Part shown: positions 14,900 through 37,615 of the stretch, piece by piece
How the letters are laid out: each line of letters opens with the position of its first letter
Position numbering within the stretch: the first letter of the stretch is position 1
Source: Aquabacterium sp.
GTDB lineage: Bacteria; Pseudomonadota; Gammaproteobacteria; Burkholderiales; Burkholderiaceae_C
Length of the DNA stretch: 64,000 bases
Assembly (NCBI RefSeq): GCF_028689755.1
Contig: NZ_JAQVCO010000001.1
Reading direction: 5' to 3' (one strand)
The notes under the pieces: model-generated
The model's input: the letters and a program-made list of their open reading frames with translations, nothing else
Databases searched by the model: none
Told to the model about the DNA's origin: nothing
Program-made: the position numbers and the translations under genes

Positions 14900-15730
14900 T
14901 TACCAGAGCTGCCACCAGGGCTTGGCCTCACCCTTGAGCGCGTCGCCGCTGAGGTAGGCGCTGTCGGGGAAGCTCTGCTTGAGCACGCGAACGGCATCGT
15001 CACGCAACTGGACCAGGCCCAGCTGATCGTAAGCGCGGGACATGATGTACAGCGCCTCTTCGATTGCGGGCGATTGCGGGTAGTCCTTGATCGCCTGTTG
15101 TGCCCGGTTGGCCGCAGCCAGATAGGCGCCGCGACGCAGGTAGTAGCGTGCCACGTGCACTTCACCCGCGGCCAGCGAGTTGACCACGTGGTTCATGCGC
15201 AGGCGCGCGTCTTCCGCGTACTTCGACTCGGGGAAGCGATCGACCACCTGCTTGAACGACTCGTAGGCATCGCGCGAGGCCTGCTGGTCACGCTCGGACA
15301 GGTCCTGGCGTGCCAGGCGGCCGAACAGCCCCAGGTCTTCGTTGAAGTTGATCAGACCCTGCAGGTAGTAGGCATAGTCCATCGCCGGACTGGTGGGGTG
15401 CAGGCGGATGAAGCGCTCCAGCTTGGCCAGCGCCAGTGCCTTTTCACCGCTGCGGTAGTAGGCATAGGCCAGGTCCAGCTGCGCCTGCTGCGCCAGCAGT
15501 GTGCCGGAGGCTCGGGCTTCCACCTTCTCCAGCATCTTGACGGCGGTCTCGAAATTGCCGTCCGCCTGCTCTTCCTTGGCGTCTGCGTACAATTTGTCGG
15601 AGTTGATGTTGGCGTACTCGTCCTGTGGCGCGGTACCGCAAGCCGCCAGGGCGGCGCTCAAAGCCAGTGCCAGCAGGCCGGTGCGTTGGCCGGTCCAGAA
15701 GCGCGAGGATGGGTTCTTCAGCAGTTTCAC
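14900..15730 (-). CDS. bamD: Outer membrane protein assembly lipoprotein BamD
   Basis: Lipobox LAAC, TPR repeats, RFPESKYAEDARLR, ARYYLRRGAYLAAANRA; divergent from rluD as is typical; start uncertain (GTG 15730 chosen for signal-peptide length). Confidence 0.93.
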   Translation of the reverse strand: MKLLKNPSSRFWTGQRTGLLALALSAALAACGTAPQDEYANINSDKLYADAKEEQADGNFETAVKMLEKVEARASGTLLAQQAQLDLAYAYYRSGEKALALAKLERFIRLHPTSPAMDYAYYLQGLINFNEDLGLFGRLARQDLSERDQQASRDAYESFKQVVDRFPESKYAEDARLRMNHVVNSLAAGEVHVARYYLRRGAYLAAANRAQQAIKDYPQSPAIEEALYIMSRAYDQLGLVQLRDDAVRVLKQSFPDSAYLSGDALKGEAKPWWQLW

Positions 15731-15841
15731 GTTGAGTTTCTTGCGGATGAGTCCGCTCACAGTCACGCCATACGGCGCCACAATGCGCAGTATAGAAGCC
15801 CTGCGCCCCTAGTTTGCGCTCACCCCTGTTTTGATTGCCAT

Positions 15842-16993
15842 ATGGCCCGACCTCCTCGTTCTGCCGCTGCCCCTTCTTCCTCCGTTTCCGAGTCGGTCTC
15901 GCCGGATGCCAGCCTTTCGGCGCCCCTGCCAGACGATGACTGGGGCGACGACGAATCGGGCGAAGACCTGGGTGTGATCGCGGCAGCGACGTCCCGGCCC
16001 GAGCCGGAGCAGCGCACGCTGGAGGTGCCGCTCTCGGCACAAGGTCAGCGTCTGGATGCGTTCCTGGCCGCTTGCGTGCCCGAGTATTCGCGCAGCCACC
16101 TCAAGACCTTGATCGACGCCGGGTGTGTGCAGGTCAATGGTCAGCCGGCCACATCGCCGTCGCGCAAGGTGCTGCTGGGCCAGGTGCTGAACGTGCTGCT
16201 CAAGCCCACTGCGATGAGCCAGGCCTTTGTGCCCGAGCCGATGGACCTTGATGTGGTGTTCGAGGACGAGCACCTCATGGTGATCAACAAGCCGGCAGGT
16301 CTGGTGGTGCACCCGGCCGCAGGCAATTGGAGCGGCACCCTGATGAACGGCCTGCTGGCCCATCACGCCGCGGCGGTCGAACTCCCACGCGCCGGCATCG
16401 TGCACCGACTCGACAAGGACACCAGTGGGCTCATGGTGGTCGGCAAGTCGCTGGTGGCCATCACCGCGCTCAGCCGCGCCATTGCCGCGCGCGAGGTCAG
16501 TCGCCAGTATCTGGCACTGGTGCAAGGCGTGGTGCCCGAGGCCTTCACGGTCGAGTCGTCGATCGGGCGCGACCCCGTCACCCGCGTGCGCATGGCCGTG
16601 GTGCCGGCGGGCAAGGCGGCACGCACCGACGTGAAACGCCTGTTGTCGGGCGAGTGGGCGCCCGATCAAAGCGGCGTGAAGGCCGATGACCGTCGTCCTG
16701 CGCGTGCCTACAGCGGTGTCCTGTGCACCTTGCACACGGGCCGTACCCACCAGATCCGGGTGCACCTGAGCAGCCGTCGCCACCCGCTGGTCGCGGACAC
16801 CTTGTATGGTGGCCTGCCAGCCCTGGGCATGACACGCCAGGCGCTGCATGCCGCGCGCCTGTCGTTCGTCCACCCGATCACCGGCAAAAACCTGCGTTTT
16901 GAGGCCCCTTTGCCAGACGACATGGCCCAGGCCTGGGCGCTGCTGGAGGCCTCTGCGCAAGAGGCTGCACAAAATTCGGCTTCTGGTGCATAA
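15842..16993 (+). CDS. rluD: 23S rRNA pseudouridine synthase RluD (RluA family)
   Basis: S4-like RLDAFLA, INKPAGLVVHP, GIVHRLDKDTSG, TGRTHQIRVH, QALHA; start set at ATG 15842. Confidence 0.93.
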   Translation: MARPPRSAAAPSSSVSESVSPDASLSAPLPDDDWGDDESGEDLGVIAAATSRPEPEQRTLEVPLSAQGQRLDAFLAACVPEYSRSHLKTLIDAGCVQVNGQPATSPSRKVLLGQVLNVLLKPTAMSQAFVPEPMDLDVVFEDEHLMVINKPAGLVVHPAAGNWSGTLMNGLLAHHAAAVELPRAGIVHRLDKDTSGLMVVGKSLVAITALSRAIAAREVSRQYLALVQGVVPEAFTVESSIGRDPVTRVRMAVVPAGKAARTDVKRLLSGEWAPDQSGVKADDRRPARAYSGVLCTLHTGRTHQIRVHLSSRRHPLVADTLYGGLPALGMTRQALHAARLSFVHPITGKNLRFEAPLPDDMAQAWALLEASAQEAAQNSASGA

Positions 16994-17007
16994 TGCAAAT
17001 CCAGATG

Positions 17008-17229
17008 CAGGGCGAAAAGCCCTGACACCAGTGGCTTTGAGAAAAGCGCGACTGACTGGCCAGTAACTTGAAATGCTGCTGGCCATCGCCTCTGACGAGG
17101 CCCCCGTTCAGACTGATGCCCGTGTGCTGGCCCGATTTGGCAGTGCGCCAGGCTTGAAACGAATATCCCTCTGCGCCGGCCCACCAGCTGGTGTTTGAAT
17201 TGGTTGGCGCCGCTCCAGGAGCGGGTGCC
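17008..17229 (+). ncRNA. Candidate structured RNA (5' leader of scpB-rluB or independent sRNA), family unassigned
   Basis: Helices found by eye: CAGGGC/GCCCTG (17008-17024); ACACCAG/CTGGTGT (17025-31 with 17188-94); GCTTT-GAGA-AAAGC (17034-47); TGGCCAG/CTGGCCA with TTGAAAT loop (17057-85); GCCTC-TGAC-GAGGC (17088-101); 10-bp hairpin at 17206-29. CATAAT at 16989-94 upstream. Confidence 0.5.
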
Positions 17230-17239
17230 GTACACCTTC

Positions 17240-18022
17240 ATGATTGAAGAGATGGAAGTCCTCAATCCTCCGGATGCCGAGCGCATCCTGGAAGCCGCAC
17301 TACTGTGTGCCAGTCAGCCCATGACGGTGCGGGACATGCGTCAGCTGTTTGACAACGCCGTGTCGGCCGACGCGGTGCGCAGCATGCTGAACGCCTTGTC
17401 GTCGCAGTGGGAGGGGCGCGGGGTGGAGTTGCGCGAACTGGCGTCCGGCTGGCGGTTTCAAACCCGTGCCGACGTGCAGGCGCACCTCGACCGTCTCCAT
17501 CCCGAAAAACCGCCCAAGTACACGCGGGCCACCTTGGAAACCCTGGCCATCATTGCCTACAAACAACCCGTCACGCGGGGTGACATCGAAGACATCCGCG
17601 GTGTGACCGTCAGCGCCAACATCATCAAACAGCTCGAAGACCGGGGCTGGGTCGAAGTCATTGGTCACCGCGATGCACCAGGCCGCCCGGCCTTGTTCGC
17701 CACCACCCGTCATTTCCTGGACGATCTCGGGCTGGCGTCCCTGTCCCAGCTGCCTACCCTGGAAGGCTTGCCGGTCAGCCAGGGTCTGTTGCCCGGTCTG
17801 GACGATGTCGGCGCCGAGGCCCCCTCTGATGAGGCGGGCCCCAGCGTCGAGCAGGCGTCCATCCTTGAATCCGAATCGGACGCTGCCCCAGCGCCCCACG
17901 ACACTGCTTCGGCAGACCCCATTGCTGATGCGCAGACCGACGTGGTCGGCGTGTCCATGACATCTCCTGATGCGTCTGAATCGCCAGGCCCTGATGTCGC
18001 CTCTTTTCCTACCGCATCATGA
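17240..18022 (+). CDS. scpB: SMC-Scp complex subunit ScpB with acidic C-terminal tail
   Basis: [59 protein letters not shown]; start uncertain (GTG 17225, ATG 17240 or ATG 17252). Confidence 0.93.
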
Positions 18023-20094
18023 CCACCGAAAACGTGCCCATGCAAGATCCTCAAGAACAGTCCCTGGTCACCGAAGAGGTGGTCAAGCCCAAACGCGTGC
18101 GTCGCACCAAGGCGGCCGAGCCCGTCGAGGCGGTCTCGCCTGCGGCCGCTGAAGTCAGCGAGGCCGCACCGGAGGCCAAGCCCAAGCGTGCGCCCCGCAA
18201 GAAAGTCGCCGAGGCTTTGCCCGACGATGCCGTGGCCGCAGCGCCGCAGGCGCCTGAGGCCGCCGAGGTGGCTGCTGATGTGGCTGCTGATGTGGCTGCT
18301 GATGTGGCTGCTGATGTGGCGCCGGCCGCCAAGCCCAAGCGCGCCCCGCGCAAGAAGGCCGTCGAGGCGGTGAACGACGTCGCACCTGCGCCCGTGGTTG
18401 ACACGGTGGTCGCATCGCAGGACGTGGCGGCGGTCGCTGCGCCCGTGAGCGTGACGCAAGAAGGTGAGCAGGCCGAGCGCGCGCCGGTGGCCGCCGCGTC
18501 TGAAGGCGAAGGCGCACCCCGCGGTGAGCGTGGGCGTCGCGATCGCGGTGATCGTGGTGATCGTGGTGATCGTGGTGATCGCCGCGGACCTCGCGCTGAC
18601 CGTCCGCCGCGCGAAGAGCGTCGCCCACAGGCAGCTGCTGGCGAGCGTGATGAAGCCGCGCCCGAAGCGATGGAAGAGGGCGGGGCTCCGATGGGTTCGC
18701 GCCGTGCCGTCATCGCCGCCGAGCAGGCCACCGAGGTGTTCGCCGAGCTCCTGTCGGGTGACTTTGACAAAGAGCGTGAAGAGGCCGAAGAAGCCGCTGC
18801 CGAAGAAGGTGGCGTCTACAAGCGCGTTCTGCTGCCCGAGCCCGATGCCCCCAAGCTGCAGAAGGTGCTGGCGCAAGCCGGCGTCGGTTCGCGCCGCGAC
18901 ATCGAGCAGATGATCGAAGACGGCCGCATCGAGGTGAACGACCAGGTGGCTCACATCGGTCAGCGCATCTCCTTTGGTGACCGCATCAAGGTCGCCGGTC
19001 GCCCGATCAAGGTACGCATTGCGCCGCCCGCTGCCCGCATCCTGGCCTATCACAAGCCCACGGGCGAAGTCGTCACACACGATGATCCGCAGGGTCGCCC
19101 CACGGTGTTCCGTCGTTTGCCGCGCCTGCACAACGGCAAGTGGATGTCGGTCGGTCGCCTTGACCTGAATACCGAAGGCTTGCTGCTGTTCACCAACTCC
19201 GGTGAGCTGGCCAACCAGTTGATGCACCCGCGCTTTGGCGTGGAGCGCGAGTACGCCGTGCGCGTGCTGGGCTCCCTGGGCGAGGATGCGCGCAACAAGC
19301 TGTTGACCGGCGTCGAGATCGACGGCCAGACGGCCTCCTTCCTGTCCATCAGCAACGGTGGCGGCGAGGGCGTGAACCAGTGGTATCGCGTGGTCATCAC
19401 CGAAGGCCGCAACCGCGAAGTGCGCAAGCTGTTCGACGCCGTGGGCCTGACGGTCAACCGTCTGATCCGCGTGCGTTATGGCGCCATCGTCCTGCCGCGC
19501 GGTCTCAAGCGTGGCGTGTGGGTGGAGCTGGGCGAGTCCGACGTGCGTGCCGTCAAGTCGCTGGCCGGCATGGACCGCCAGCCTGAGGCGGGTCAGGGTG
19601 GTCGCGGTGGCCGTGGGCCCAAGCCCCTGCCCGTCAAGGCGCGTCCGGCACCCGTCGGTGGCCCAAGCCAAGGTCAAGGCCAGGCCCCCCAAGGCCGTGG
19701 TGGTCAGCCAGGGCAGGGCGGTCGTCCGCAAGGCAAGCCCTTCAATGAACCCGGCGCCTTCGGCAACAAGAACCGTCAAGAGCGTGAGCGCCAACCCGCC
19801 CCGCGCCACGATGGGGATGACGACGAGCACTTCGCCCGGATCCCGAACCCCCTGGAGCAGACTTTTGACCGTCGCTTCGTCAAGGGCTCTCAGCGCATCA
19901 CGGCAGGTTTTGGTCGTCCCGATCAGAATCACGGCAAGGGAACGGGCGAGCCGCAAAAGGGCCCCCGTCAGCCTGACCCGCTGCAAACCTCCGTGGGCTA
20001 CATCGGCGCCGATGCCTTCTTTGGCAAACCCGGTGGCGGTGGTGGCGGCCGTCGCGGTGGCGGCGGCGGCGGTGGTGGTCGCGGTCGTCGCTGA
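18019..20094 (+). CDS. rluB: 23S rRNA pseudouridine synthase RluB (RsuA family) with long N- and C-terminal low-complexity extensions
   Basis: S4 domain [44 protein letters not shown]; follows scpB with ATGA overlap. Confidence 0.9.
18268..18321 (+). repeat. In-frame 12-bp tandem repeat (GTGGCTGCTGAT)x4 plus partial copy, encoding (VAAD)4
   Basis: Four perfect copies at 18268, 18280, 18292 and 18304. Confidence 0.95.
18541..18585 (+). repeat. In-frame 9-bp tandem repeat GATCGYGGT x4 plus partial copy, encoding (DRG)4
   Basis: GATCGCGGT GATCGTGGT GATCGTGGT GATCGTGGT GATCGC. Confidence 0.9.

Positions 20095-37118: not shown

Positions 37119-37203
<85 letters not shown>

Positions 37204-37530: not shown

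Positions 37531-37615
<85 letters not shown>

Follow-up and report, generated by a model that had tools for sequence, protein, structure and literature searches.

A stem-loop at the 5' end, as in 5' untranslated regions (UTRs) of the ompA type, protects an mRNA from 5'-end-dependent decay. In the leader of rne (RNase E 5' UTR, RF00040) and in similar autoregulatory leaders a row of hairpins, some of them conserved and others variable, fills the several hundred nt that separate the promoter of a housekeeping gene from its start codon. The spacer between an rluD-like gene and scpB of Aquabacterium sp. (NCBI RefSeq assembly GCF_028689755.1, contig NZ_JAQVCO010000001.1) shares features with both of these systems as well as with riboswitches, intrinsic-terminator attenuators and small RNAs (sRNAs) derived from 5' UTRs. 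It was analysed within a stretch of 64,000 nt, in the following called the window. Judged by sequence comparison, the spacer is best described as a real element under selection, made up of a conserved promoter and an unclassified, fast-evolving structured 5' leader. A literature search found nothing on the rluD/scpB spacer locus.

As in the rne leader, hairpins follow one another between a promoter and the start codon. Unlike RF00040 and its kind, the spacer shows no sequence or covariance-model similarity to that family, its conservation is limited to part of one genus and the scpB-rluB leader is without evidence of feedback by the encoded proteins. The first hairpin (HP1) is stable and lies a few nt from the 5' end in the manner of an ompA-type stabiliser, whereby in our case the 5' end is a predicted one and a protective role would follow from textbook knowledge. 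With riboswitches the spacer has in common the 5' leader position, several helices and a GNRA loop; it differs from them by the lack of a conserved core, a conserved junction and an Rfam match, and by its single copy. In sister species the fourth hairpin (HP4), located ~110 nt after the promoter and followed by CCCUUUUUU, looks like a leaky terminator and is thus reminiscent of attenuators and 5'-UTR sRNAs, whereas the window has no U-tract and a short stem, and no antiterminator was found.

A predicted family-wide promoter at the rluD/scpB junction

Junctions of rluD and scpB were gathered from at least 36 Aquabacterium genomes. A further ~80 genomes represent other members of the family, among them the genera Roseateles, Rubrivivax, Methylibium, Piscinibacter, Rhodoferax, Hydrogenophaga, Polaromonas and Comamonas. 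Clade A refers to the subclade of the window, four sequences with the three closest genomes L111, L112 and L002, and clade B to its sister clade. A metagenome scan for close relatives added one, L133.

The firmest result is the hexamer CATAAT (16989-16994, + strand; as all features of the spacer given below), which overlaps the rluD stop codon TAA (16991-93) and is predicted to be a sigma-70 -10 element conserved family-wide at the rluD/scpB junction. A preliminary description of the locus had already proposed it as a -10, and the proposal is borne out in two ways. Firstly, the promoter scan places a -35-like hexamer, TGCACA (16966-16971), 17 nt upstream. The combined site (16966-16994) matches in 9 of 12 positions and is the sole sigma-70-like site in the region, with 0.1 sites expected in shuffles. 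Secondly, TACAAT, CATAAT, TATAGT or TATAAT is present at the junction in 106 of 110 distinct loci as opposed to 4 of 220 length-matched control windows. Some Aquabacterium subclades have TATAGT instead of CATAAT and most other genera TACAAT; the -35 position of other Aquabacterium loci is occupied by YGCCACA/TGCACA-like sequences. Moreover TGGTGCATAATG was found in all 17 Aquabacterium loci first extracted, including those with the rluD stop 30-70 nt upstream, in which the motif is non-coding.

The position of the -10 relative to the rluD stop region differs by genus and may be after, on or inside it. In 42 loci the hexamer falls into the coding tail of rluD, where 35 read it in frame as the Tyr-Asn codons TAC-AAT. 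Since AAT accounts for only 31% of Asn codons in the bodies of rluD, retention of TAC-AAT in the tail points to a constraint on the DNA and not on the protein, and hence to a promoter that constrains codon choice. The last ~40 nt of rluD contain TACAAT, within the codons ..G-L-R-Y-N.., in Rhodoferax, Hydrogenophaga, Comamonas, Polaromonas and related genera (Comamonadaceae loci L046-L106 and L137-L201). Where species separate the rluD stop from the scpB promoter, a terminator-like hairpin directly follows the stop (L018, 1154-1177; L023, 1431-1454).

From the standard spacing of -10 and +1, transcription is predicted to start at 17000-17003, ~7 nt after the -10. Both clade A and clade B keep a CAGAU/CAGAUA motif that begins at these positions. 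Recurrent TTGAnn motifs had hinted at a second, internal promoter; it was rejected, as the motifs are without a -10 at the correct spacing. In nearly all loci ~120-330 nt separate the -10 from scpB. Taken together, a separate promoter conserved family-wide and a long leader are predicted for scpB-rluB. Given the conserved -10 at the gene junction, the most likely identity of the spacer is that of a 5' leader of scpB-rluB; it lies between the predicted promoter and a co-oriented start codon and contains no conserved open reading frame (ORF).

The start region of scpB

A block of 19 nt, TGATTGAAGAGATGGAAGT (17242-17260), surrounds the ATG at 17252 and is shared without a single difference by 15 other Aquabacterium genomes. 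An ATG at 17240 is specific to the window genome, the aligned codon in relatives being ACG, AAG, TCG or CCG, and L112 carries an in-frame TAG four codons upstream of an ATT codon that aligns with 17243-45 of the window. Based on these alignments the predicted start of scpB is the conserved ATG 17252; an ATT or ATC start is conceivable. No canonical Shine-Dalgarno sequence is located at normal spacing from the scpB start, and GAAGAG abuts the ATG. The in-frame I-E/D-E/A codons before ATG 17252 vary in a protein-like manner. A pairing of CCAUCGCCUCU with GAAGAGAUGG, considered as an anti-start-site interaction, is kept neither in L002 nor in clade B and was discarded.

Selection on the spacer and its reach

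Identity of the spacer to L111, L112 and L002 amounts to 0.93, 0.84 and 0.80, respectively. Third codon positions of rluD and scpB give 0.77-0.78, 0.55-0.56 and 0.58-0.67 for the same genomes, and the spacer between bamD and rluD 0.87, 0.72 and 0.63. These values show that the spacer is under purifying selection. The part containing HP1 to HP4 is conserved best (identity 0.81-0.94), and within clade A the block 17002-17061, which covers HP1, HP2 and the linkers, hardly varies.

BLAST with the spacer gave a match in only 1 of 36 genus members, a genus-wide alignment is incoherent, and sequences can be aligned no further than two Aquabacterium subclades. The only sequences that a covariance model built from clade A detects are leaders of clade B, at the orthologous position (E ~1e-7 to 7e-5). 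Neither the 5' module nor the whole spacer has a second copy in the genome according to nhmmer; a repeat, a mobile element or a regulon motif was rejected on these grounds. No conserved small ORF exists in any frame of the spacer. Candidates for a leader peptide, including a 41-codon ORF at 17073-17198, are all interrupted or shifted in close relatives.

The statement that the element matches no recognised family stands as well. At gathering thresholds the Rfam 15 scan of the window returned only two tRNAs, both outside the spacer, and a permissive scan of 16800-17400 yielded unrelated families with a best E of 1.8. Rfam scans of 20 orthologous loci gave no match, and ARAGORN detected no tRNA or tmRNA gene in 16800-17400.

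Predicted fold: a row of eight hairpins

Minimum free energy (MFE) and centroid structures were predicted using RNAfold and yield eight local hairpins (HP1-8). All stems of the preliminary description, like CATAAT, are present in the sequence where it had placed them.

HP1 (17007-17026, stem 17008-24) is the 5'-proximal hairpin CAGGGC-GAAAA-GCCCUG. HP2 (17029-17054) consists of an outer stem CAGU/ACUG and of GGCUUU-GAGA-AAAGC(G)C with a GNRA loop, whereby GCTTT/GAGA/AAAGC corresponds to 17034-47. HP3 (17057-17085), UGGCCAGUA.../...UGCUGGCCA, has a variable apical part. HP4 (17088-17101) is a GCCUC-UGAC-GAGGC hairpin followed by a C/U-rich tail (17102-17111). HP5 (17105-17161) is a long imperfect arm with a core at 17118-32/17139-53 and a loose base formed by CGTTCAG (17105-11) and CTTGAAACG (17153-61). 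HP6 (17173-17194) of the centroid fold reads GCGCCGGC-CCACCA-GCUGGUGU, and HP7 (17205-17230) reads UGGCGCCGCUC-CAG-GAGCGGGUGCCG. HP8 (17236-17249), CUUCA-UGAU-UGAAG, is a small hairpin adjoining the start codon; it was read from the sequence and is also found by RNAfold.

Fold energies were compared with those of dinucleotide shuffles. The + strand of the spacer folds with an MFE of -97.5 kcal/mol against -87.0 +/- 5.1 in 200 shuffles (z = -2.04), and the - strand reaches z = -1.30. Hence the spacer does fold better than the average shuffle, but the margin is modest, as 8 of the 200 are equal or better. Random 240-nt pieces of the same genome have a mean z of -0.37 (sd 1.1) and 8% of them lie at -2 or lower. 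The impression of a spacer packed with helices is thus true, yet only modestly better than chance and unexceptional for a GC-rich genome. In all four sequences of clade A the + strand gives z = -2.0 to -2.3 and the - strand -0.7 to -1.45.

Covariation of individual hairpins

Pairing of HP1 and HP4 seems to be maintained by compensatory changes across Aquabacterium subclades, albeit in few events. In HP1, both partners of 3 of the 6 pairs differ between subclades (CG/UA; AU/CG; CG/UA with UG intermediates) in an alignment that was not fitted to structure. Its covariation score is 0.389 in comparison to 0.19 +/- 0.05 in shuffles, and 0 of 500 shuffles reach it. Versions of the stem include CAGGGC/GCCCUG, UCGGGU/ACCCGA and GGAGG/CCUCC, and most Aquabacterium leaders have some hairpin of differing sequence at this position. 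Fifteen sequences, drawn from most subclades of Aquabacterium, have HP4 in the form RCCUC-loop-GAGGY-CCC at a distance of ~94-139 nt from the upstream -10 (mostly ~100-105). Among 19 hand-registered sequences its first pair is GC in 13, AU in 5 and GU in 1, its fourth pair UA in 14, CG in 4 and UG in 1, and mismatches do not occur.

HP2 is the hairpin conserved best in sequence. It is invariant in clade A and has a counterpart in clade B at the same place (GGCUUUU-GAGA-AAAAGCC); the loop GAGA is common to both clades and reads GCGA in L122. The basal 5 bp of HP3 are invariant, L112 and L002 differ in its apical stem and in the loop (A-U to G-U), and clade B has another hairpin instead. Changes in HP3 and HP5-7 are mainly one-sided and compatible with wobble pairing. 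For HP5 this concerns 5 of 13 core pairs in clade A (G-U/G-C, U-G/U-A), none changing on both sides, and pairing is mostly kept (88.5% of cells). The share of paired cells in clade A is 93.8% for HP6 and 90.9% for HP7, in which one-sided changes affect five pairs and a two-sided change affects one. All 5 pairs of HP8 are invariant in clade A, and only 3 bp are left in clade B.

Within clade A as a whole 94.6% of the pair cells are standard, most stems never vary and two pairs change on both sides. Covariation, named in the preliminary description as a means to judge the fold, therefore gives a divided answer: HP1 and HP4 show compensatory changes between subclades, whereas clade A taken together does not exceed its shuffles.

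A probable promoter and 5' leader of the scpB-rluB operon

We consider it probable that the spacer represents the promoter and a ~250-nt 5' untranslated leader of the Aquabacterium scpB-rluB operon, folded as a row of local hairpins and not as a closed junction. The sigma-70 promoter overlapping the rluD stop would start the mRNA near 17001, and the ~250-nt leader would then fold into its string of eight local hairpins. HP1, ~7 nt from the 5' end, may shield the mRNA from 5'-end-dependent decay. HP4 with its pyrimidine-rich tail could be a relic of a weak intrinsic terminator or pausing element that has lost its U-tract here, resulting in read-through. HP7 and HP8 abut a start region without Shine-Dalgarno sequence and probably limit translation of ScpB, while rluB may be translated by coupling via the ATGA overlap of the two genes.

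Several observations weigh against this assumption. The folding z-score is unexceptional (-2.04, a range that 8% of random pieces reach), and 44 Aquabacterium spacers average z = -1.37 on either strand. Covariation within clade A is no better than in shuffles, of which 33 of 500 attain the observed percentage of paired cells and 245 of 500 the observed number of double changes. For HP1 and HP4 it rests on few evolutionary events, and registering HP4 by eye biases the count. Loops and linkers within 17002-17061 are near-invariant, suggesting a constraint beyond hairpin stability that a plain stabilising leader leaves unexplained. Finally, start site and extent of the RNA are predictions from the sequence.

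A possible separate module ending at HP4

The preliminary description had left open whether the element is a leader or an independent sRNA. A 5' leader of scpB-rluB is the most likely option. An independent sRNA is conceivable, but the spacer of the window has no terminator. A trans-acting sRNA would have its own promoter here; a Rho-independent terminator is absent from the window and only clade B offers a weak, terminator-like HP4 (ACCUC..GAGGU followed by CCCUUUUUU). In the window the tail after HP4 reads CCCCCGUUCAGAC / CCCCCGUUCAG and is without the U-tract of clade B. As no terminator was called in the spacer of the window either, read-through is to be expected.

Nevertheless HP1-HP4, i.e. 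the first ~105 nt, might form a module of their own, either a 5'-UTR-derived sRNA or a regulated attenuator ending at CCUC/GAGG, with the remainder being the scpB leader proper. This part is the best conserved (0.81-0.94) and the one by which the covariance model detects leaders across two clades. The terminator-like HP4 with CCCUUUUUU in clade B, the near-constant distance of ~100 nt between promoter and HP4 in most subclades and an A/U-rich single-stranded patch after HP4 in many species fit such a module as well. However, we regard it as unlikely: the window has no terminator but the tail CCCCCGUUCAGAC, the stem of HP4 comprises only 5-6 bp and is separated from the U-run by a CCC spacer, and no conserved alternative (antiterminator) pairing was found. 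Moreover the genome contains no paralogue or second target site, and the module would not fit into the leaders of those Comamonadaceae genera in which they measure 120 nt.

Possible conservation at the DNA level only

Alternatively, conservation could act on the DNA exclusively, through the promoter, operator-like inverted repeats and the 3' end of rluD, with the hairpins being chance products of a GC-rich sequence and without function as RNA. A z-score of just -2.0 that is matched by 8% of random genome pieces, the genus-wide equality of both strands and the lack of significant covariation within clade A agree with this idea. Against it, the repeats of HP1 and HP4 change in sequence yet stay complementary, which fits RNA pairing rather than a protein-binding site, and conservation extends ~250 nt beyond the promoter. 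Also the + strand folds better in all clade A sequences. An effect restricted to the DNA hence appears quite improbable.

No support for a riboswitch-like junction

The main idea of the preliminary description was a leader with a specific tertiary fold: a multibranch, riboswitch-like junction with GNRA and T-loop contacts. It might sense a metabolite or be bound by ScpB, RluB or RluD. The long-range helix supposed to close the junction (ACACCAG, 17025-31, with CTGGTGT, 17188-94) contains four broken cells, of which three fall among the 7 pairs of L002 and one in L112, and shows no compensatory change; the centroid fold replaces it with the local HP6, which takes CTGGTGT. The T-loop-like UUGAAAU capping the 17057-85 stem turned out to be the most variable stretch among the closest relatives. 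Since the sequence is unalignable beyond two Aquabacterium subclades, with the covariance model reaching no further than clade B, there is no conserved core of the ligand-binding type. A closing helix and a T-loop-like loop that are not conserved, combined with no invariant core beyond the genus, leave the junction unsupported, and a riboswitch-like junction with a conserved core is unlikely as far as the alignments tell.

For a tertiary fold or a bound protein speak the near-invariance of loops and linkers, and not of stems alone, in 17002-17061 of clade A, the GNRA loop of HP2 (GAGA in clades A and B, GCGA in L122) and the unusually conserved start region of scpB without a normal Shine-Dalgarno sequence. 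Against these stand the missing Rfam match here and in 20 orthologous loci, the unconserved closing helix and hypervariable T-loop-like loop, the failure to align across the genus, unlike riboswitch cores, and the absence of a regulon owing to the single copy. Furthermore no likeness of the spacer to rRNA target helices was found in a comparison restricted to approximate segments of the E. coli 23S rRNA (the assembly is without 23S). As this comparison gave only chance 6-9-mers, mimicry of rRNA for a feedback by RluD or RluB was dismissed. Altogether a metabolite-sensing or protein-binding leader of this kind is very doubtful.

That the hairpins mainly serve as 3' UTR or terminator region of the rluD transcript is highly improbable: rluD transcripts must run into the spacer because the rluD stop overlaps the promoter, and HP4-type hairpins could stop or stabilise them, but the conserved hairpins hold their distance to the promoter and not to the rluD stop, relatives with space have a separate terminator-like hairpin between the two, and the spacer of the window has no terminator.

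Gene context

The order of genes around the spacer is bamD (-), the rluD-like gene (+), spacer, scpB, rluB, ndk and rlmN. The flanking genes are those stated before, rluD-like on the 5' side and scpB followed by rluB on the 3' side. bamD is located at 14900-15781 (- strand). The rluD-like gene spans ~15974-16993 (+), encodes S4 and PseudoU_synth_2 domains and has RluD as best NCBIfam match. The mechanical ORF list gives 15074-16993 (639 aa) and thereby over-extends rluD by ~300 codons into bamD on the opposite strand; the enzyme core begins near residue 325 of this ORF, and the actual start is near 15974. The downstream operon covers 17252-20094 (+), with scpB reaching to 18022 and rluB, overlapping by ATGA, from 18019 to 20094 (Pfam, NCBIfam). 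ndk and then rlmN follow downstream of rluB.

RluB has 691 aa, of which the S4 domain and the catalytic core match only ~residues 278-519, leaving long additional N- and C-terminal arms. The DNA of the N-terminal arm is merely 0.72-0.85 identical to close relatives and contains many gaps. Elsewhere in the window two tRNA genes of 82 nt (37122-37203 and 37534-37615, - strand) have equal Rfam scores and lie 412 nt apart; they are probably a tandem duplicate. A conserved probe for domain V of 23S rRNA found no match in the 53 contigs of the assembly, from which the rRNA operon is apparently absent.

Leaders in other genera and implications

Piscinibacter/Rhizobacter-like leaders upstream of scpB (L089, L107, L052, L088 and L108; ~2260-2500) possess common conserved blocks of their own. 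They contain a CGCG-AGAAG-CGCG hairpin whose stem covaries with GAUGC/GCAUC, and RNAalifold predicts a long-range pairing between UCCUU at the 5' end and GAGGA upstream of the scpB start. As far as sequence comparison goes, leaders of scpB thus seem to be structured and functional family-wide, with genus-specific solutions. A count over 107 leaders shows TTTGAA (24 sequences versus 1.7 expected), TGATGC (23 versus 3.9), GATTTG, GTTTGA and CCTGAT to be enriched across genera; relatedness of the sequences inflates all of these counts. The hexamers may mark A/U-rich single-stranded patches, e.g. sites for RNase E or Hfq.

One may go further and assume that each genus has its own fast-evolving structured leader behind a family-wide promoter, and that HP1-HP4 of Aquabacterium with CCUC/GAGG at an invariant position is a true regulatory device. 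Whether it acts as a regulated terminator or pause site, binds a protein or gives rise to a 5'-UTR sRNA, it would make expression of a condensin subunit and a ribosome-biogenesis enzyme depend on a cellular signal. We consider this conceivable, if unlikely; were it true, the leader would represent an unrecognised class of cis-regulatory leader. On the present evidence the spacer is not a new riboswitch class, and annotation pipelines labelling it 5' UTR would be correct.

The predicted promoter spans a large family (Comamonadaceae plus Sphaerotilaceae, broadly defined) and at times lies in the last codons of rluD. If our reading of promoter and leader holds, it would be a clear case of a promoter constraining codon choice and would provide scpB-rluB with independent transcription. 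Likewise selection would act on a long leader whose sequence nevertheless turns over inside one genus, and the control of condensin (ScpB) and RluB expression would become testable in these bacteria.

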